A stretch of 64,000 nt of DNA, taken from positions 68,763 through 132,762 of the forward strand of contig CAWGPW010000043.1 of NCBI GenBank assembly GCA_963824555.1, given 5' to 3'. This stretch comes from an uncultured delta proteobacterium. GTDB lineage: Bacteria; Myxococcota_A; Polyangia; Fen-1088. Both the position numbers and the translations under genes were made by a program. Below the pieces are notes generated by a model. That model made no database searches. It was not told the origin of the DNA and saw only the letters and a list, made by a program, of their open reading frames with translations. Numbering within the stretch: the stretch's first letter is position 1; every line of letters begins with the position of its first letter. Of this stretch, positions 2,933 to 62,815 are shown in pieces.

Positions 2933-3060
2933 GCTGTTCTCCTTGAATGTTGTCGAAGGTGAGGCGGCAACGCCGACCAGATGGCGTTCGTTGGAATTGG
3001 AAAGCGGTAAAGCCTGAATCATGACAAATCCTCTCTTGTCTTGGTTTTGCGAACGGCCGC

Positions 3061-4116
3061 TTGCACGGCCGCGTGCTAAGAAGATGTTCGAGAGTTGCTG
3101 GACGTTGCATGGTAAATGATCCGCAATATTTGACCGATCGTCTTGACCCGGCGGATGATGGGTCACCCGATGTCGCCGACATCCTGGGCGATCTGCTGAG
3201 CAGCTTGCGTTTCACGACGCTGGTTTATGGCCGCATGGAGCTAGGCGCTCCTTGGGGTTTGAGCTTTCCCAGCCTACCCGAGTCGGCCAGTCTCCTGGTC
3301 ATTGCCCGGGGCAGCGCCCAGCTCGAGCTTGAAAGGTCCGATCAGACGACTGTGACGACAACCGTGCTCTCCTCGGGCGACGTGGCGTTGCTTCCGCGCG
3401 GTGGGGCGCACGTCTTGCGTGATGGCGAGGGCAGTCCCCTGCACGTCCTCGGCACGGGCCAGTGCCAGCGCTCGACCGCGGCGAACCCCATTCGCGTGGG
3501 GGGCAACGGGGCTCGAACGACGTTGGTCGCGGGTGCGTTTCGCTACGGTGCCGGGCGGCGGATCCCCCTGTTCGAGACGCTTCCGTCCGTCATTCACATC
3601 GCCGCGTCGGACGCGCGCGTCTCGCCTTGGTTGTCGTCGACCGTGCAACTGCTCATTTCAGAGAGCGCTGCGCACAGCGCGGGCGGTACCGTGGTCGTTT
3701 CGCGGTTGGTCGACGTGCTGTTCGTGCAGGCGCTACGCACGTTCATCATGAACGGTAGCTGCAAGGAAAGCGGGCTGCGCGCGCTCGGCGATCCCCAGAT
3801 CGGGAAGGCTTTGCAGCTCGTCCACGAGCGGCCGGCGGAGCCATGGACGGTCGAGCGGCTGGCGCGCGCCATCGGCTTGTCGAGGTCGACTTTCGCGGCG
3901 CGGTTTTCCGAGCTGGTCGGCGAGCCGCCCTTGGAATACGTCTCGCGCTGGCGCATGACCAAGGCCGCCGAGCTTTTGCGCGAGAGCGATCTCTCGGTGC
4001 TCGACGTCGCCGAGCGTGCCGGCTACAGCAGCGAGGCCGCCTTTGGCCGCGCTTTCAAGCGCCACGAAGGCACGGCACCCGCGCGCTACCGGCGCCAACA
4101 GACACGCGCGCGCTGA
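3061..4116 (+). CDS. AraC family transcriptional regulator (cupin-like N-terminus + AraC HTH). Start uncertain, alternative Met at 3109.
   Basis: C-terminal AraC HTH signature (RLARAIGLSRSTFAARF...YVSRWRMTKAAELL...GYSSEAAFGRAFKRHEGTAPARYRR). Confidence 0.8.
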   Translation: MHGRVLRRCSRVAGRCMVNDPQYLTDRLDPADDGSPDVADILGDLLSSLRFTTLVYGRMELGAPWGLSFPSLPESASLLVIARGSAQLELERSDQTTVTTTVLSSGDVALLPRGGAHVLRDGEGSPLHVLGTGQCQRSTAANPIRVGGNGARTTLVAGAFRYGAGRRIPLFETLPSVIHIAASDARVSPWLSSTVQLLISESAAHSAGGTVVVSRLVDVLFVQALRTFIMNGSCKESGLRALGDPQIGKALQLVHERPAEPWTVERLARAIGLSRSTFAARFSELVGEPPLEYVSRWRMTKAAELLRESDLSVLDVAERAGYSSEAAFGRAFKRHEGTAPARYRRQQTRAR

Positions 4117-4358: not shown

Positions 4359-6029
4359 TCAGGGCTTCCCGACGAAGGTCGTAACCGATTGCGCGGCGAG
4401 GGAGGCGCTAAACCGTCCTGCCGTAACGGCGATATCCGTCCCAGCAGCCAGCTTGGAGCTCGAGGTGGTGACATACGGGGTGACGGAGGCCGGCCAGGCC
4501 GTGCCCGCCACGAACAGGGAGACCTGCTGGGCACTGCCGCCGTTCACCACGACGATGGCGACCGTTCCATCCGATAGGTTCGAGAACGCCACGACCAGAG
4601 GCACGGTTCCGGATGCTTTGGCCGCGCCGCTGACGTCGACACGGTAGTACCCGGGGCGCACGAACTTGCTGAAGTTCCCCAGCGCGTAAACCTGCGCGGG
4701 CGGACTGCTCGCGTTCGGCACAAGGCTCTCCGTCCACCAATAGTGCCATCCGTTCACTCCACCGGTCGAGAACGCTGCGTAAATCATGGTCCCGATGGTG
4801 ATCGGTCCCGTGTCACCCGGCGTGCACTCGGTCTCCCAGACATGGTGCGTGTTGTTCGCGGGCGGCGCCGGACGTCCATAGGTCCCCGCGCTGGTGCTTC
4901 CGTAGTCATGCGTCGCGATCGGCCCGACGTAGGAGTCGGCCTTCGAGTCGGCGATGATAGCGGGGCCGTAGCCGTCGCCTCCCCAAATATTGCCCCAGTT
5001 GTCGGGCTCGGCCGCGAGCACTTTGACGGGCGGACTAAGTGCGGCCAGCTTCGGGCCCAGCACATCAATCCAGGCCACCATTTGTGACGAGTTGAAGATG
5101 CACGACTGGTAGCTTGCCACGAAATCAGGCTCGTTCTGTGCCGAGATGGCGTAAAGGTCCACGCCACCGTTCTGCTTGTAGAACGCAGGAAACGCCGCGA
5201 GAATCGTGGCCCACGAGTCGTAGGAGGCGCTATTCAAATGCCCGCCATTGTTGACGTTGTTGTTGTCCTTGTCTCCTGCGGGTGGCGACCAGGGAGCGGC
5301 CCACACTTTGCATGCACTGCCGGCAAACTTGGTGCAGGCCTGGCCGTCGGCATACCCCGCGGCCCCCATGATATTGGGTTTGCCGCTCGTGCCGTCGATA
5401 CCGACGCGGAGCAGGGTCAGCCCGATCCCGTTCACTGGGTCCCATAGGAGCGTTTGCATGGTCGTCGAAGATGAGCCCTGCCACACGTCGGCCAACCCGA
5501 AGCCGTCTACAACCTGATGGGTCTTCGTCGGATCGACCGTGACATCGCCCGTCTGGGCCGTCCCGGGCGTCTTCGTTCCAACATAGATTGCGGTGCTGCC
5601 GCCCGCCCCCATCCCAGCGGCACCGCCGGTGCCTAGCTCGGCTCCGCCTGAACCGTTAAGACCGCCAGTTCCCGGCCGGCCGTCCGTGCGGGGCGCTGCA
5701 TCGGAGATGCTGGCGTCGCCCGAACCGCCACGACCGCCGGTCCCGACCTGGCCGCCCGATCCCGGCTGGCCGCCCAAGCCGGTCGCCCCGCCAGATCCAA
5801 TCACACCACCCGAGCCGCTACGGCCACCGGTGTCTGCAGCGCCGCCCGATCCCGGCTGGCCGCCCGATCCGGGCTGGCCGCCCGAACCGCGCTCACCGCC
5901 AGTTCCGATCGCGCCTCCGACTCCCGAACCTCCGGAGCTCGTGGAAGTGACCGGTGTGCCCGATGAGCAAGCAGCGCCCGCGATAGCGAGAGCTGCAACC
6001 GTTGTACGCAAGAAGCGGCTTGATGTCAT
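4359..6029 (-). CDS. Secreted/lipoprotein GH30 family glycoside hydrolase (glucuronoxylanase XynC-like) with Gly/Ser-rich linker
   Basis: Signal peptide + Cys (AIAGAAC). GSGGQPGSGG repeats. Catalytic-region motif LYAISAQNEPDF matches the GH30 XynC block YAISVQNEPD. Confidence 0.7.
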   Translation of the reverse strand: MTSSRFLRTTVAALAIAGAACSSGTPVTSTSSGGSGVGGAIGTGGERGSGGQPGSGGQPGSGGAADTGGRSGSGGVIGSGGATGLGGQPGSGGQVGTGGRGGSGDASISDAAPRTDGRPGTGGLNGSGGAELGTGGAAGMGAGGSTAIYVGTKTPGTAQTGDVTVDPTKTHQVVDGFGLADVWQGSSSTTMQTLLWDPVNGIGLTLLRVGIDGTSGKPNIMGAAGYADGQACTKFAGSACKVWAAPWSPPAGDKDNNNVNNGGHLNSASYDSWATILAAFPAFYKQNGGVDLYAISAQNEPDFVASYQSCIFNSSQMVAWIDVLGPKLAALSPPVKVLAAEPDNWGNIWGGDGYGPAIIADSKADSYVGPIATHDYGSTSAGTYGRPAPPANNTHHVWETECTPGDTGPITIGTMIYAAFSTGGVNGWHYWWTESLVPNASSPPAQVYALGNFSKFVRPGYYRVDVSGAAKASGTVPLVVAFSNLSDGTVAIVVVNGGSAQQVSLFVAGTAWPASVTPYVTTSSSKLAAGTDIAVTAGRFSASLAAQSVTTFVGKP

Positions 6030-6788
6030 GCGTTCCTCTCTGCTTGGTATTTCGACGGTCGACGTCTGTCATGGACAGACCTAACGCCCGCGTCGCCCAC
6101 GCGGGTGCAAGTCTCCAGGGCAGAAGCCATGATATTATGTAGTGGCGGGAGCACCTGAGTTCCGTCTCAAAATTCAGACAAAAAAAGGCGATCCCTTGCT
6201 CGAGACGCCGCCGCACGGTTCCGATGGGTGTGCGCGGAGGTGTGTGCGATATCCGCTGATGATGCGCCATGTAGGAGCGAAGCACGCCCATGCTACCGGC
6301 TTGTGCTTCTTCCACCAAGTCATCGGGACGAGGTCTCCTCCCAGTTCCGCCGCTGGGCCGAGGCCCGGATCCTTCAAGCGTGAAGCGTGACAGCCCCTTG
6401 TATCTTACGGGGGACTGGCTCGCTCTCGCTCGCAGTCCCCCGGTCCCCCCTCGCTTCGCCCAGCAAAGCTGGGCTACGCTCGCCCCCAAAGGCGAAGGAG
6501 CACGACAAGATTCAACGGCACGACAGCCCGATGCCCCTCTAACTTGCAGTGGCAAACCACAGAGGTTTTACCTTGACCAGGAACACAGATGCTCACCCGC
6601 CTCGCTGCGCTCGGCGACCTGCTATGGAAGTGCGTGAAGTGCGGACGTAAGTCCGCGAATTTTCATGCTTGGGGGTGCGGCCACCGCGCCCCATCGGGAC
6701 TCTCTCAGCTACGCGGTGCTTCGCGGGGCGAGGTGGTTTCAGGTCAGGTGGACAACCGTGGTCGCGCGTAGTACACCCCGGCACCTCC

Positions 6789-8414
6789 GTGGTTCGACTC
6801 GACAACATCAGCAAGCAGCATGGCCCGCAAATCCTATTTGTAGATGCCAGCGCCGCGCTCTTGCGTGGCGAGAAGGTGGGTCTTGTGGGACCGAACGGCG
6901 CGGGCAAGTCGACCGTCTTTCGCCTGATCATGGGCGAGGAATCGGTGGACGACGGGCAGATCTCCATCGACCGCAACGTGACCATCGGGCACTTCAGCCA
7001 AGACGTAGGCGAGATGAAAGGCGTGTCGGCCCTGGCCGCCACCATGGACGGCGCCGGTCCGGTATCGGCCTTGGCCAGCGAGCTGCACGAGCTGGAGCAT
7101 GCCATGGCCGATCCCACGCGGGCTGATGAGCTCGAAAAGTTGGTCGACCGCTTCGGCCACGCGCAGGCCCGATTCGACGAGCTCGGCGGCTATGCGCTGG
7201 AGGCACGGGCGCGCGAGATCATGGCCGGCCTCGGGTTTTCGCAAGAGCAAATGGACGGCGACGTGGGCAACCTTTCGGGTGGGTGGAAAATGCGCGTGGC
7301 TCTGGCGCGCATCCTGCTCATGCGGCCCAACTGCATGCTGCTCGACGAGCCGTCGAACCATCTCGACATCGAGTCGATCATCTGGCTCGAGGAGTTTCTC
7401 AAGGATTTCGACGGCGCTTTGCTCATGACCACGCACGACCGCGAGTTCATGAATCGCGTGGTCAGCAAGATCATCGAGATCGATGGCGGCGTGATGACGA
7501 GCTATTCTGGCAACTACGACTTCTACGAAAAGCAGCGTGCGCTGCACACCGTGCAGGCCGAGGCCGCGTACGCGCGCCAGCAGGCCATGCTGGCCAAGGA
7601 GATCCGCTTCATCGAGCGTTTCAAGGCGCAGGCTTCGCACGCGGCGCAGGTGCAATCGCGCGTGAAGAAGCTGGACAAGATCGAGAAGCTGGAGCTGCCA
7701 CGCCGCCGGCGCACCATCACCTTCGAGTTCCCGGAATCGCCTCGTTCGGGTGAGGACGCGGTGAAGATCGAGGGCTTGTGCAAACGGTACGGCGACCACG
7801 TCATCTACGACGATTTCAGTCTGATGATCCGACGCAAGGAGCGCTGGAGCGTGATGGGGGTGAACGGCGCGGGCAAGTCGACGTTGCTCAAGTTGGTGGC
7901 GGGCGACATCGAGGCCAACGCGGGCAAGGTCACGCTGGGCGCGGGCGTGCGCATGGGCTACTTCGCACAGCACGCGATGGAGCTTCTCGATCCGCAGAAG
8001 ACGGTCTACGAGACGCTGGAGGAGGCCTTTCCCCTAGCCTCGGTGGGCACTCTGAAATCGCTGGGCGGCTGTTTCGGTTTTTCGGGCAGCGACATCGACA
8101 AGGTGTGCCGCGTGCTTTCGGGGGGCGAGAAGGCCCGCGTGGTCATGGCCCGCTTGCTCTACGATAGGCCCAACCTGCTGGTCCTAGACGAACCCACCAA
8201 CCATCTCGATTTGGCCACCAAGGAAATGCTCTTGTCCGCGCTGCACGATTTCGAGGGCACCATGCTCTTCGTGTCGCACGACCGCCGGTTCCTGGCCGCC
8301 CTGTCCAACCGCGTGCTCGAGCTGGACGGTGGCGCCACCACTACCTACGGCGGCGGCTATTTGGAGTATGTCGCTCGTAGCGGACACGAGGCGCCCGGCC
8401 TGCGCGCCAAATAG
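6789..8414 (+). CDS. ABC-F family ATPase (Uup/YheS/EttA-like, two ABC domains, no TMD). GTG start inferred.
   Basis: Two Walker A (GPNGAGKST, GVNGAGKST) and two ABC signature (LSGGWKMR, LSGGEKAR) motifs, with an inter-domain linker. The ORF N-terminal extension from 6669 looks non-coding. Confidence 0.8.
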   Translation: MVRLDNISKQHGPQILFVDASAALLRGEKVGLVGPNGAGKSTVFRLIMGEESVDDGQISIDRNVTIGHFSQDVGEMKGVSALAATMDGAGPVSALASELHELEHAMADPTRADELEKLVDRFGHAQARFDELGGYALEARAREIMAGLGFSQEQMDGDVGNLSGGWKMRVALARILLMRPNCMLLDEPSNHLDIESIIWLEEFLKDFDGALLMTTHDREFMNRVVSKIIEIDGGVMTSYSGNYDFYEKQRALHTVQAEAAYARQQAMLAKEIRFIERFKAQASHAAQVQSRVKKLDKIEKLELPRRRRTITFEFPESPRSGEDAVKIEGLCKRYGDHVIYDDFSLMIRRKERWSVMGVNGAGKSTLLKLVAGDIEANAGKVTLGAGVRMGYFAQHAMELLDPQKTVYETLEEAFPLASVGTLKSLGGCFGFSGSDIDKVCRVLSGGEKARVVMARLLYDRPNLLVLDEPTNHLDLATKEMLLSALHDFEGTMLFVSHDRRFLAALSNRVLELDGGATTTYGGGYLEYVARSGHEAPGLRAK

Positions 8415-38394: not shown

Positions 38395-40137
38395 ATGAGC
38401 GACGTCAATCTGATCATCAACGACCTGCCGGTGAGCGTTCCCGCCGGCTCGACGATTCTCGAAGCCGCGCAGGCGCTGAGCATCCGCATTCCTACCCTGT
38501 GCTACGACAAGCAGCTCACGGTGTCGGGCGCCTGCCGCCTGTGCGTGGTAGAGGTGGCCAATCCCACGGGCTCCACGCGGCTCGAGCCGTCATGCTCGTT
38601 TCCAGTGCAAGAAGGTATGCGGGTGCGGACCAACACGCGCGAGCTGCGCGATGCCCGCCGCACCATCATCGAGCTGATCCTGGCCAACCATCCGCGCGCT
38701 TGCCAGACCTGCATTCGCAACCAGCGCTGCAGTCTGCAGGATGCCTGTCGTGAATACGGCATCGACAAGATCCGCTACGAGGGCGAAAAGCGGCATCACG
38801 CCGTCGATGCTTCGTCGGTGGCCATCACGCGCCACCCGGACTACTGCATCCTGTGCGGTAAGTGCGTGAAAGTCTGCAAGGAAGTGCAGGGCGTGTACGC
38901 ACTGGATTTCGTCAACCGCGGCTTTTCGACCACGGTGCTGCCGCCCTTCGATCGCGACCTCGCCGACACGGTCTGCGTGTTGTGTGGGCAGTGCTTGCTC
39001 AAGTGTCCGGTCGCAGCCATCCGCGACAAGAGCTACATCAAGACGGTTGCCGATGCGCTGGAAGATCCGGACAAGATCGTCACCGTTCAAATCGCACCCT
39101 CGGTGCGGGCCACCGTTGGCGAGCTCTTCGGCCTTCCCCCGGGCGTGTCGTTGACCCGCAAACTGCCGACCGCGCTTCGCCGCGTCGGTTTCAAGTACAT
39201 CTTCGATACCGATTTCGGCGCCGACATGGCGGTCATGGAGGAAGGCCACGAGCTCGTGGCGCGCTTGCAGAAAGGCGGGCCGTATCCGCTCATCACCAGT
39301 TGCTCCCCGGGCTGGGTGAAGTTCATGGAGCACTTCTTCCCCGAGCTCATTCCGAACACGTCTTCGGTCAAGTCGCCGCAGCAGATTCTCGGCGTGCTGA
39401 CCAAGACGTTCTTCGCCGAGCGCAATGGCATTGACCGCAAGAAGCTCTTCAACGTCTCGATCATGCCGTGCTCGGCCAAGAAGTTCGAGATCCAGCGCCC
39501 CGAACACCGTCTGGACGACGGCACCCCCGAGGTGGACGCCGTCCTGACCACGCGCGAGCTCGGCGACTTGCTCAAGATGCACGACATCGACCTCCCGTCG
39601 CTGCCCGAGTCGGCCTTCGACCCCATCCTGGGCGAAACCACGGGCGCCGGTCTGATCTTCGGCGTGACCGGCGGTATGATGGAGGCCGCGCTGCGCACGG
39701 TGGCCGCGGTGATGGACCCCCATACCGAGCCGCGCATGGAGTACTCGGTCTTGCGCGGAACCGGGGGCATCAAGCGCGGCTCGGTGCTGATCGGCGAGCG
39801 CGAGATTAGGCTTTGCGCCGTGCACGGGCTGGCCAACGCGCGCAAAATCCTCGATGACCTTCGTGCGGGCCGCGAGGAAATCCACTTCCTGGAAGTCATG
39901 GCCTGTCCCGGCGGCTGCATCGGCGGCGGTGGTCAGCCCTTGCCCACCGACGAGGAAACCCGCCGCAGGCGCATCGAGGCCATGTACGCCGAGGATCGCG
40001 GCATGCCCATTCGGCAATCGCACAAGAACCCGGCCGTTCGCACGGTGTACGACGAGTTCCTGGGCGAGCCCTGCGGCGAGAAGGCGCACCACCTTCTGCA
40101 CACGCACTACGCCGCCCGCTCGCCACGCGGGTTCTAA
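38395..40137 (+). CDS. hydA: [FeFe]-hydrogenase catalytic subunit, second copy, also with L1 = TSCSPGW
   Basis: Good RBS (AGGAACGGAGAC). Motifs ITSCSPGW, IMPCSAKKFE, EVMACPGGCIGGGGQP. The last 257 bp are duplicated at 42173..42429. Confidence 0.85.
   Translation: MSDVNLIINDLPVSVPAGSTILEAAQALSIRIPTLCYDKQLTVSGACRLCVVEVANPTGSTRLEPSCSFPVQEGMRVRTNTRELRDARRTIIELILANHPRACQTCIRNQRCSLQDACREYGIDKIRYEGEKRHHAVDASSVAITRHPDYCILCGKCVKVCKEVQGVYALDFVNRGFSTTVLPPFDRDLADTVCVLCGQCLLKCPVAAIRDKSYIKTVADALEDPDKIVTVQIAPSVRATVGELFGLPPGVSLTRKLPTALRRVGFKYIFDTDFGADMAVMEEGHELVARLQKGGPYPLITSCSPGWVKFMEHFFPELIPNTSSVKSPQQILGVLTKTFFAERNGIDRKKLFNVSIMPCSAKKFEIQRPEHRLDDGTPEVDAVLTTRELGDLLKMHDIDLPSLPESAFDPILGETTGAGLIFGVTGGMMEAALRTVAAVMDPHTEPRMEYSVLRGTGGIKRGSVLIGEREIRLCAVHGLANARKILDDLRAGREEIHFLEVMACPGGCIGGGGQPLPTDEETRRRRIEAMYAEDRGMPIRQSHKNPAVRTVYDEFLGEPCGEKAHHLLHTHYAARSPRGF
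39881..40137 (+). repeat. Direct repeat copy 1 (native 3' end of hydA2, 257 bp)
   Basis: About 99% identical to 42173..42429. Differences: CAGCCC vs CAGCTC, stop TAA vs TAG. Confidence 0.8.
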
Positions 40138-42172: not shown

Positions 42173-42429
42173 TCCACTTCCTGGAAGTCATGGCCTGTCC
42201 CGGCGGCTGCATCGGCGGCGGTGGTCAGCTCTTGCCCACCGACGAGGAAACCCGCCGCAGGCGCATCGAGGCCATGTACGCCGAGGATCGCGGCATGCCC
42301 ATTCGGCAATCGCACAAGAACCCGGCCGTTCGCACGGTGTACGACGAGTTCCTGGGCGAGCCCTGCGGCGAGAAGGCGCACCACCTTCTGCACACGCACT
42401 ACGCCGCCCGCTCGCCACGCGGGTTCTAG
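42173..42429 (+). pseudogene. Orphan duplicate of the hydA2 3' end (last 85 codons, no start). Direct repeat copy 2.
   Basis: Encodes HFLEVMACPGGCIGGGGQLLPTDEETRRRRIEAMYAED...ARSPRGF, identical to the HydA2 C-terminus except P->L. Begins 16 nt after the MDR stop. Confidence 0.8.
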
Positions 42430-60472: not shown

Positions 60473-61312
60473 CTATTTCACGCCAGCCTTCTTGGCCTCT
60501 TCCCACAGCGTGTTCTGCTCTTCGGGTGTCGCCGACTTCATGGTGCGGCCCTCGGCTTCCAGGCGCTCTTCCATGTGGCGAAAGCGACGACCGAAGCGAT
60601 CGGTGGCTTCGCGCAGGGCGTGCTCGGCGTCGAGACCGAGCTTGCGCGCCAGGTTCGTGATGGCGAACAGCAGATCGCCGAGCTCGTCGGACATGGCCTT
60701 GCGGTCCTCGCCGGCGCAGGCCTCGTCGAATTCAGCCAGCTCTTCCTTCACCTTGTCGCGCACGCCGGCAGCGTCGGGCCAATCGAACCCGACCGCGCCG
60801 GCTTTCTCGCCCGCGCGCATGGCGCGTACCAGGGCAGGGGCGCTGCGTGGAATCCCGTCGAGAGCGCCCTTCTTGCCCTTCTTCGCTTTTTCCGTGGCCT
60901 TGAGCTTGGCCCAACTGGCCAGCGCTTCCTCGGCGTTGCTCGCCTGCACGTCGCCGAACACGTGCGGGTGTCGGCGCACGAGCTTGCGCACGATTCCCTC
61001 GATCACCTGGTCGATGCCGAACGCTCCCTCGGCATGGCGCAGCTCGGCCTGGAAGATCACCTGCAAGAGCAAATCGCCGAGCTCCTCGCAGTGGTCGGCC
61101 ACGTTGCCGGATTGCAGGGCATCCACGACTTCGTAGGTTTCCTCGACGAGGTAGGGCAAAAGCGAGGGCAGGGTTTGCTCGCGATCCCAGGGACACCCAT
61201 CGGGGGCGAGCAAGCGCTGCATGAGACCCACCAGGCGGGTCAGGTTGGCGCCCGTCTGTTTGCCGGGCAAGGGATCGAGATCGAGAGTTGGGGCTGGCGT
61301 TTCGTCGTTCAC
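60473..61312 (-). CDS. mazG: Nucleoside triphosphate pyrophosphohydrolase MazG (GTG start inferred)
   Basis: Two MazG domains (EETYEVVDALQSGNVADHCEELGDLLLQVIF and LAEFDEACAG...ELGDLLFAITNLAR). The listed ORF's N-terminal 137 aa is read-through of the tandem repeat. Confidence 0.8.
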   Translation of the reverse strand: MNDETPAPTLDLDPLPGKQTGANLTRLVGLMQRLLAPDGCPWDREQTLPSLLPYLVEETYEVVDALQSGNVADHCEELGDLLLQVIFQAELRHAEGAFGIDQVIEGIVRKLVRRHPHVFGDVQASNAEEALASWAKLKATEKAKKGKKGALDGIPRSAPALVRAMRAGEKAGAVGFDWPDAAGVRDKVKEELAEFDEACAGEDRKAMSDELGDLLFAITNLARKLGLDAEHALREATDRFGRRFRHMEERLEAEGRTMKSATPEEQNTLWEEAKKAGVK

Positions 61313-61383
61313 GGGCCTGCAGTCTAGCCCCGGGCCCTCTAGCCCGCACCGTTCTTCAGTTGAATCTGACCAAATCACCGTAG

Positions 61384-61731
61384 ACGCGTGAGGAGCCTGC
61401 CGGCTATGCCGGCAGCGAATCATCGCGGGAGGGTTTGGGAACCCTTTCAGGGTTCCCATCACGACGATGCACGCGTGAGGAGCCTGCCGGCTATGCCGGC
61501 AGCGAATCATCGCGGGAGGGTTTGGGAACCCTTTCAGGGTTCCCATCACGACGATGCACGCGTGAGGAGCCTGCCGGCTATGCCGGCAGCGAATCATCGC
61601 GGGAGGGTTTGGGAACCCTTTCAGGGTTCCCATCACGACGATGCACGCGTGAGGAGCCTGCCGGCTATGCCGGCAGCGAATCATCGCGGGAGGGTTTGGG
61701 AACCCTTCGAGGGTTCCCATCACGATGTACG
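61384..61731. repeat. Tandem repeat, 87-bp unit x4, each unit containing two perfect hairpins
   Basis: The unit ACGCGTGAGGAGCCTGCCGGCTATGCCGGCAGCGAATCATCGCGGGAGGGTTTGGGAACCCTTTCAGGGTTCCCATCACGACGATGC begins at 61384, 61471, 61558 and 61645. The last copy is degenerate at its 3' end. Confidence 0.9.
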
Positions 61732-61780
61732 TGCTGCCTGGTTCTTACCGGGTGTTCGTGCTACAGAGGAGCGTGCAACC

Positions 61781-62815
61781 TTGAGCCCTCGATCCTCCGA
61801 TCATCCGCGTTCCGGCACCGACGTCGAGTCGGATCGCGTCGTTCTCGACGACAACCGCGTCGCGCTCATGCTCTTCGGCGAGCGCAACGCCAACCTCAAG
61901 CGCATCGAGATCGAGACCAATGCCAGGCTCCACTCGCGCGGCAACGAGCTGACCTTGATGGGCAGCGCGGATGCCATCGGGCAGGCCAGGCGCCTGGTCG
62001 AACAACTGTACCGCATGGCCCGCAGTGGCCGGCCCATCGGGCCCGAGGACGTGGGCCGCGCCGCTGAGGTCCTGCGCGGCGACGCCAGCGCCAACCTGCA
62101 AGAGGTCTTTTCGGACACCATTCTCGTGGGCAGCCATGCCCGTCCCATCGCGCCCAAGGGCCTGGCGCAGAAACGCTACGTGGACGCCATCCGCGAACGC
62201 GACATCGTGTTCGCCATCGGTCCCGCAGGCACGGGCAAGACCTACCTCGCCATGGCGCTGGCGTTGCGCGAGCTGCTCGAAAAGCGCGTAAAGCGCATCG
62301 TGCTCACCCGGCCAGCCATCGAGGCGGGCGAGCGCCTGGGCTTTCTGCCCGGCACCATGGAGGACAAGGTCTCGCCGTACCTGCGGCCGCTTTACGATGC
62401 CCTGCACGACATGGTCGATTTCGATCGCGCCCAGCAGCTCATGGAACGCGGCATTCTGGAGATCGCGCCCCTGGCCTTCATGCGCGGGCGCACCCTCAAC
62501 GATTCCTTCGTGATTCTCGACGAGGCCCAGAACACCACCAGCGAGCAGATGAAGATGTTTCTCACCCGGCTCGGTTTCGAGTCGAAGGCGGTGGTTACCG
62601 GCGACGTCACCCAGATCGATCTGCCCGACCGCCGTCGCTCCGGCCTCACCGAAGCCGAAGCCCTGCTCAAGGACGTCGAGGGCATCTCCATCTGCTACTT
62701 CACCGAGGTCGACGTGGTTCGCCACCCGCTGGTGGCCAAGATCATCCGCGCCTACGAGCGCAAGCGGGCCGAGGACGACGCCGACCAGGGTGGCTGGGCA
62801 CGCCCGGCGAAGTAG
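61781..62815 (+). CDS. phoH: PhoH family ATPase (TTG start inferred)
   Basis: KH-like N-term, P-loop [16 protein letters not shown], PhoH core [18 protein letters not shown]...DEAQNTT. Confidence 0.8.

Follow-up and report, generated by a model that had tools for sequence, protein, structure and literature searches.

In REPIN-RAYT systems, repeats flank a single-copy RAYT gene encoding a Y1 HUH transposase; the features given below for these systems and for REPs reportedly go back to Nunvar 2010 and Messing 2012. RNA-level roles, as 3'-end or terminator hairpins, mRNA stabilisers or ribosome-stalling modules, have been described for the REPs of E. coli. Insertion next to a short motif that is regenerated is the logic of both IS200/IS605- and REP/RAYT-type single-strand transposition. 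REP/BIME and REPIN-RAYT systems are known from Enterobacteria, Pseudomonas and Stenotrophomonas (covered in part by Bertels and Rainey 2011, PMC3116915), and other structured repeats include the MITE, Correia, ERIC, BOX, RUP and SMAG elements (covered in part by PMC2267715 and PMC3049150).

Here we analyzed a stretch of 64,000 nucleotides from an uncultured member of the Polyangia (the window), which carries an array of four 87-bp units. As judged from sequence and covariance-model comparisons, these units are head-to-tail copies of a dispersed two-hairpin repeat family. Like REPs, the members of this family are short, GC-rich and extragenic, with many copies per genome and an imperfectly palindromic stem that shows compensatory variation; the GTRG-like tetranucleotide (GTGG/GTAG/GTGA) just 5' of hairpin 1 resembles theirs more loosely. 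They are also clustered, located near stop codons at gene 3' ends and insertion-polymorphic between relatives. In contrast to the single palindrome of 20-40 nt that constitutes a REP, the family unit is about 80 nt long and combines two conserved boxes with a pair of dissimilar hairpins. Its arrays are direct and head-to-tail, while REPINs form inverted doublets and BIMEs alternate; inverted pairs were absent, all copies being single or in direct arrays, and the minus-strand model matches within arrays were palindrome echoes. Further differences from REPIN-RAYT systems are the host clade, Polyangia, and the result of a search with E. coli RayT (tblastn and phmmer), which gave no match in 116 loci of 8 kb or in the window.

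With the ends of IS200/IS605 elements and of their non-autonomous derivatives, the PATEs, the family appears to share the lack of terminal inverted repeats, subterminal strand-specific hairpins and short conserved motifs at or beside the ends, the motif in its 5' flank resembling its 3' tail. This likeness predicts single-strand 'peel and paste' transposition. Unlike in IS200/IS605, however, one hairpin is not similar to the other; no TnpA/TnpB was seen, and no orientation bias relative to local GC skew was detected. The MIRUs, which are mycobacterial VNTRs, are similar in having units of 40-100 bp arranged head-to-tail in intergenic positions at many loci of a high-GC genome, and the window unit of 87 bp, corresponding to 29 codons, likewise keeps reading frames open. 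MIRUs lie within operons with small coupled ORFs and have no conserved two-hairpin fold, whereas the copies of this family are mostly single and their fold covaries. Finally, the family resembles MITE, Correia, ERIC, BOX, RUP and SMAG elements in being small, non-coding, dispersed, foldable and often co-transcribed with neighboring genes. It differs from them in lacking terminal inverted repeats, a demonstrable target-site duplication and a parent IS; its ends (CGCGT... and ...CCCAT-N6) are not inverted copies of each other. The family belongs to the bacterial structured interspersed repeats. Searches of the accessible literature for myxobacterial REP or interspersed repeats found no description of it, and it is absent from Rfam.

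The repeat array between mazG and phoH

Tandem Repeats Finder reported positions 61384-61725 of the 64-kb window with a period of 87, 3.9 copies, 99% matches and a score of 670, by far the top-scoring tandem repeat of the whole window. Unit-by-unit comparison resolved the array (61384-61731) into four head-to-tail units of 87 bp on the plus strand, unit 1 (61384-61470), unit 2 (61471-61557), unit 3 (61558-61644) and unit 4 (61645-61731). The first three are identical. Unit 4 differs from them at seven positions, two in the loop of hairpin 2 (TTC to TCG) and five within its final six bases, and its tail ATCACGAT is nearer to the family consensus tail. In unit 1, the 5' box CGCGT (61385-61389) marks the sharp 5' edge seen in the family alignments; it pairs through CGCG with the same four bases in the central box (alignment pairs 20-23/74-77, 96-99% paired), and it is followed by GTGA, the counterpart of the GTRG found in most family copies. 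Hairpin 1, CTGCCGGC-TAT-GCCGGCAG (61397-61415), is free in sequence and conserved in structure across the family. The central box CGCGGGAGGG (61424-61433) occupies columns that are nearly invariant among 95 unique copies. Hairpin 2, TGGGAACCCT-TTC-AGGGTTCCCA (61436-61458), has a conserved sequence around a free loop and a closing T-A that covaries with C-G. Tail and linker follow (61459-61470), and from the GGGTTCCC of one unit to the next CGCGT the linker spans 14 nt (ATCACGACGATGCA, 61457-61470).

The hairpin 1 pattern occurred four times in the array and that of hairpin 2 three times exactly and once with the TCG loop, compared with 0.00-0.04 matches to either pattern in shuffled sequence. 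A single unit folded with -44.8 kcal/mol on the plus strand and -42.8 kcal/mol on the minus strand (z = -4.3 and -4.6). The covariance model R1 matched unit 1 at 61383-61467 with 81.3 bits, and the window units as a whole scored 80-81 bits against the family model, which was built mostly from other genomes, and share every box and helix with it. No Rfam 15 covariance model matched 61384-61731, even at E values up to 10, and a scan of 61100-62000 for sigma-70 promoters and terminators yielded no promoter- or terminator-like site. Candidate mazG and phoH promoters read by eye were discarded as too weak. Metagenome scans (JGI contigs) for the left junction of the window insertion and for the internal linker of the 87-bp units were both empty. 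Tandem Repeats Finder also listed CCTGGGCGAGC twice, at 40059-40080 and 42351-42372, 2.3 kb apart, which hints at a duplicated segment or paralogous genes.

These data agree with the initial annotation, which had described four tandem 87-bp repeats with two perfect stem-loops each, units 1 to 3 identical and the fourth divergent at its 3' end, between divergent mazG and phoH genes. It had set the array apart from CRISPR, and indeed the units abut without spacers, with units 1 to 3 identical over all 87 bp. Its view that the array is non-coding was likewise sustained: the ATG at 61406 arises from the TAT loop (TAT-G), which in other copies reads TTT or TTC, and both this ATG and the open frames are peculiar to the window copy. 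Three of the six frames are open through the array (60473-61723 on the minus strand, 61388-62815 and 61435-62067 on the plus strand) because 87 bp equal 29 codons, and the read-through ORFs are spurious N-terminal extensions that lengthen mazG to 416 aa and phoH to 475 aa. A protein-coding repeat was considered and rejected on account of indels among copies (an optional column after CGCGT, variable linkers) and the presence of both orientations beside stop codons.

Both flanking genes lie outside the element. The mazG-family gene (60473-61312, minus strand) most likely starts at GTG 61312 and has orthologues with Pfam PF03819, while the phoH-family gene (61781-62815, plus strand), with PF02562 matches, starts at TTG 61781 after a GAGGAG Shine-Dalgarno sequence. 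Metagenome assemblies contain many PhoH relatives with 92-98% identity, and 12 mazG-phoH loci from this set (L001-L003, L122-L130) were used for comparison. All 12 contain the divergent gene pair with start codons about 50 nt apart, and in each of them ...CTCTAGCGCC...GAGAC is joined straight to TGCCGCCTGGTTCTTGC...GTGCTACAGAGG in a compact empty site. No copy was found with the family covariance model in these loci, about 85 kb in total. Since all related loci are empty, the window array represents a lineage-specific insertion, and the alignment places the entry of this DNA into the mazG-phoH gap, a recent event, in the window's own lineage.

According to the same alignment, the whole insertion comprises about 387 bp (61347-61733, plus strand; boundaries good to a few bases) and consists of the four units and a 37-nt leader (61347-61383), which is AT-richer (46% GC) and lies between the left junction and unit 1. 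Nothing similar to this leader was found in the window, the family loci or the mazG-phoH relatives, and no target-site duplication was visible at the insertion junctions. Between the insertion and the start codons of its neighbors, 34 nt remain on the mazG side (GTG) and 47 nt on the phoH side (TTG). On the phoH side the block CCTGGTTCTT...GTGCTACAGAGG and the Shine-Dalgarno sequence, conserved in all relatives, were left intact, as was the conserved block AGTCTAGC on the mazG side. The farther upstream DNA of both genes would now be repeat sequence. As side effects, the insertion would have separated the upstream regions of the two genes by about 390 bp and replaced the DNA upstream of about -25 of mazG. 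Downstream of phoH (62816 to about 64000 in the window), relatives L001, L002, L122 and L128 carry a GAF/HD-domain gene and ybeY. This phoH-ybeY-type operon is conserved; relative L127 has no GAF/HD gene.

A dispersed two-hairpin family in uncultured Polyangia and Myxococcales

A census of bacteria and archaea with one genome per species was carried out with the 18-base pattern GGGAACCCT-N3-AGGGTTCCC of hairpin 2. At least 116 stretches contained it, compared with about 9 chance sites according to our own estimate for uniform composition. Among the matches listed, at least 41 assemblies were labelled as Polyangia, Myxococcales, deltaproteobacterial or proteobacterial MAGs, derived from fen, soil and groundwater and often with many loci per genome; outside this group, the matches listed included a small number from Rokubacteria, Methylomirabilota, Dormiibacterota and Acidimicrobiales. 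Genomes of uncultured Polyangia/Myxococcales carry many copies each, and the question that the initial annotation had posed as a check, whether the unit is a dispersed family, was answered in the affirmative. No family match was obtained in plasmid and phage collections. A single match in viral contigs, to an AT-rich phage, was judged to be due to chance and rejected.

The box GCGGGAGGG adjoined hairpin 2 on one side in 131 of the 147 matches listed and served to orient the copies. Family alignments of 95-124 unique copies revealed a common plan consisting of the CGCGT box, hairpin 1, the box CGCGGGAGGG, hairpin 2 and an 8-nt tail, a unit measuring about 78-85 nt. CGCGT forms a sharp 5' edge and is followed by G/A/T/C-G/A (GTGG, GTAG, GTGA etc.). 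The tetranucleotide before hairpin 1 reads GTGG, GTAG, GTGA, GTTG or GTCG after CGC; its GT is conserved, while the two positions after it are more variable than those of classical REPs. In hairpin 1, the outer stem has 3-4 pairs and the inner stem 6-8 pairs, with a GGAG-like internal loop between them, and a C-G pair closes the TTN triloop. Next comes the box (AT)CGCGGGAGGG, which contains a CGCG that pairs with the one at the 5' edge. It ends 2-3 bases before hairpin 2, which has a free triloop between its two conserved arms. The tail of about 8 nt follows the consensus AT-N-T-C-R-A-T. Most copies are single, and at about 12 of the approximately 100 sites 2-6 copies follow one another head-to-tail, with periods between 77 and 83. 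The 87-bp periodicity, which the initial annotation had regarded as distinctive, is therefore not a family constant: the period in the window results from its longer 14-nt linker, the linkers of the other arrays measuring 5-9 nt. The window instance is otherwise ordinary for the family, apart from its promoter-side location.

The specified structure was paired in 90.9% of cells compared with 81.1% in column shuffles. Its covariation score of 0.242 exceeded the 0.086 of shuffled alignments, none of 500 shuffles scored as high, and sliding the partners by 1-3 columns lowered the score to 0.02-0.06. RNAalifold recovered the same helices without a supplied structure. In the inner stem of hairpin 1, five of the eight pairs switch among GC, CG, AU and UA in a compensatory manner, and the closing pair of hairpin 2 is U-A in 75 copies and C-G in 15. 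The search pattern left no freedom in the hairpin-2 arms; copies detected by the covariance model alone, however, contained variants, and these were compensated (GGGGACCCT/AGGGTCCCC, as well as AAAGGACCCT/AGGGTCCTTT in a four-copy array). The family fold is under selection. The free but covarying hairpin 1 and the compensated variants of hairpin 2 indicate that the former is structure-specific only, while the latter is specific in both structure and sequence. Within well-supported stems, G.T/T.G combinations outnumbered A.C/C.A combinations 21 to 2 (p = 7e-5, a count that is indicative and not fully independent since copies are related), and pairing therefore appears to be maintained on the written strand, which is the plus strand of the window. 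The sequence ACCCTCCC, formed by the end of the 5' arm and the CCC loop of hairpin 2, is exactly complementary to the box GGGAGGGT. This alternative pairing is possible in roughly half of the copies, those with the CCC loop; in the window units (61424-61448; TTC or TCG loops) it is available only via AGGGT/ACCCT.

Several variants accompany the standard copies. In the loci L006:~6700-6790, L116:~5650-5740, L044:~2800-2890, L082:~2380-2460, L075:~3040-3130 and L063:~400-490, chimeric copies retain the central box and hairpin 2 but have a G-rich module in place of hairpin 1 (GGGGTGGGCAGGGTGG or the complementary sequence); the two in L006 and L116 are apparent orthologues. A shorter hairpin with the same core, GGAGGGGAAGGGGGAACCCT-N3-AGGGTTCCCC(C)TTC, is present in MAGs of Rokubacteria and Methylomirabilota (L019:4650-4695, L065:~5810-5850, L087:2221-2315, L100:~5200-5240, L103:~1750-1790 and L008:7462-7546), and the Rokubacteria locus L008 displays the full two-hairpin layout with 46.6 bits. 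In the window itself, positions 6400-6484 of the minus strand gave a weak match (R1, 26.7 bits, E ~6e-4 with filters off), in which a hairpin-1-like GAGCGTAGCCCAGC-TTT-GCTGGGCGAAGC precedes a long hairpin of another kind, GGGGGACTG-N15-CAGTCCCCC; the match may represent a distant relative of the family or a related family. The same filled site with the same flanks was present in two different species-level MAGs (L102:~4720-4880 and L116:~6220-6380), and some insertions therefore predate a species split. Two arrays, L034:6486-6960 and L096:7255-7429, mix subfamilies, with one 'GGGGAGCC' unit followed by 'AGGCGGAGCC' units, so that growth by insertion beside a resident copy is possible besides local duplication.

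Genomic context was assessed for 101 independent sites with a simple GC3-based gene caller, whose gene calls are crude. Between co-directional genes the element was antisense at 31 sites and sense at 22, convergent genes flanked it at 11 sites, and at 12 sites both neighbors read away from it. The copies have no orientation preference relative to transcription. Promoter-type gaps like that of the window, accounting for 12 of the 101 sites, are a minority, and the family is mostly found at gene 3' ends. Of 49 genes reading toward the 3' end of the element, 36 have their stop codon no more than 14 nt from the hairpin, usually within the tail, whose consensus complement contains TGA or TAA; of 40 genes reading toward the 5' end, 22 stop equally close to the 5' box, and the CGCGTGA and CGCGTAG found there themselves carry stops. 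Target preference, element-supplied stops and selection are inseparable in these data as reasons for this proximity. Orientation was not linked to local GC skew (44 vs 40), an uninformative comparison, since GC skew over blocks of 8 kb is a poor proxy of replication direction.

Possible routes of spread

On balance, and with confidence slightly above even, we favor a new REP-like, non-autonomous structured repeat family that inserted into the mazG-phoH gap, was amplified there and was probably moved as single-stranded DNA. Strand-specific pairing together with an unbiased transcriptional orientation favors a DNA-level, single-strand mechanism, which we infer to be the most likely one, at a probability that falls a little short of even. 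Under this mechanism, one DNA strand would fold into the two hairpins, as in REP-type or IS200/IS605-derived non-autonomous elements, and a trans-acting sequence-specific enzyme would recognize CGCGT/GTRG, CGCGGGAGGG and the GGGAACCCT/AGGGTTCCC hairpin. The putative enzyme, encoded elsewhere, would probably be an HUH/Y1-type transposase. Copies would be placed beside a short RAT-like motif, and such a motif in the 3' tail of each element would explain the seamless and mixed-subfamily head-to-tail arrays. The 5' flank (G-A-T) indeed resembles the end of the tail (R-A-T), and array junctions are seamless, the tail being directly followed by CGCGT. The mixed arrays, the seamless junctions and the likeness of flank and tail point to insertion beside a self-regenerated motif. 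Subsequent local amplification, by slippage or unequal exchange, would have produced three identical units and one older unit, and best explains the identity of units 1 to 3. Several observations count against this explanation: the search for a transposase was negative (see below), orientation shows no link to GC skew, the two hairpins differ where the ends of IS200/IS605 or the arms of REPINs are alike, and the window insertion includes the extra 37-nt leader.

No transposase was found near the window array or among the family loci searched. All-against-all clustering of 2007 flanking ORFs identified only histidine kinases and Ser/Thr kinases as recurrent neighbor genes; one further apparent cluster was rejected, being merely the translated repeat. 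Membership in a known IS/MITE terminal repeat, which the initial annotation had named as a refutation of its reading, was not borne out, the unit having no terminal inverted repeats and no transposase nearby. A bolder version, which we regard as unlikely, is a new type of non-autonomous single-strand transposon that would combine a structure-only REP-like hairpin with a sequence-specific second hairpin, home to sites near stop codons and to the tails of resident copies and use an enzyme new to REP-like repeats. Its design would be modular, a G-rich module sometimes taking the place of hairpin 1, and a related hairpin-2 core occurs in Rokubacteria.

The initial annotation had offered three options, a structured sRNA array, a repeated regulator or nucleoid-protein site and a REP/MITE-like family. 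The last is the best supported of the three, given the dispersed membership and the 12 empty related sites, with the reservation that its MITE part did not hold, terminal inverted repeats and target duplication both being missing. The sRNA array lost ground, since orientation is unbiased relative to genes and no Rfam family matched, and the regulatory array did so as well, given the relatives that have a gap of the 51-nt type and the prevalence of copies at gene 3' ends.

A wider RNA-level role, as a 3'-end or terminator hairpin, mRNA stabiliser or ribosome-stalling module, is a possible though rather doubtful alternative. In the window the four copies may then form a structured 5' leader of phoH, and the box with its GGAGG and hairpin 2 with its CCCTCCC may act as a switch resembling a Shine-Dalgarno/anti-Shine-Dalgarno pair, to which the complementarity of GGGAGGGT and ACCCTCCC in CCC-loop copies would be suited. 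The strand-specific tolerance of wobble pairs suits an RNA no less than single-stranded DNA, a unit folds strongly on either strand, and the stop codons adjoining so many elements at either end imply that those copies would be transcribed into 3' UTRs. The wobble pairs mark the sense strand, yet antisense copies are as frequent as sense copies. No U-tract or terminator-like site was found in 61100-62000, the tails following AT-N-T-C-R-A-T, and the Rfam search was negative. In the window, the phoH core region that is conserved begins only downstream of the array, which need not be transcribed, and an RNA function leaves the spread of copies and the seamless arrays unexplained.

More clearly improbable is an array of duplex operators, in which the 9-3-9 palindrome GGGAACCCT-N3-AGGGTTCCC would bind a dimeric regulator or nucleoid protein and tune the mazG and phoH promoters. 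The position in a divergent promoter region and the conservation of the hairpin-2 arms around a free loop across at least 41 MAGs, as in a protein recognition site, would fit such a role. A duplex site, however, would not need hairpin 1 to keep its pairing rather than its sequence, and the tolerance of G.T but not of A.C favors a folded single strand. Most copies are at gene 3' ends, with 12 of 101 sites between outward-reading genes, and the same gene pair is managed without the array in twelve relatives. Because these relatives do without it, a dedicated regulatory role is unlikely, and the window array most likely has no dedicated function.

A purely local VNTR duplication or assembly artefact unrelated to a wider family is barely credible and already largely refuted by the family matches: the identity of units 1 to 3 and the absence of the 87-bp linker and left junction from JGI metagenome contigs would suit it, but the unit scores 80-81 bits against a model from other genomes, has every family box and helix and has counterparts in arrays of up to six copies in long contigs of other MAGs.

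Significance of the family

For mazG and phoH themselves, the insertion is probably of little consequence. For the Polyangia, the family copies explain contig breaks in short-read MAGs, and the consensus and covariance model enable annotators to mask copies that create spurious ORFs, while the arrays are usable as VNTR-type strain markers. REP-like repeats have been well studied in Enterobacteria and pseudomonads and are essentially uncharted in Myxococcota. The family described here combines an unusual set of features, including a structure-only and a sequence-specific hairpin, strand-specific pairing with unbiased orientation, ends that abut stop codons and mixed arrays. Together, these features make it a manageable system in which to identify the enzyme responsible for moving such repeats.
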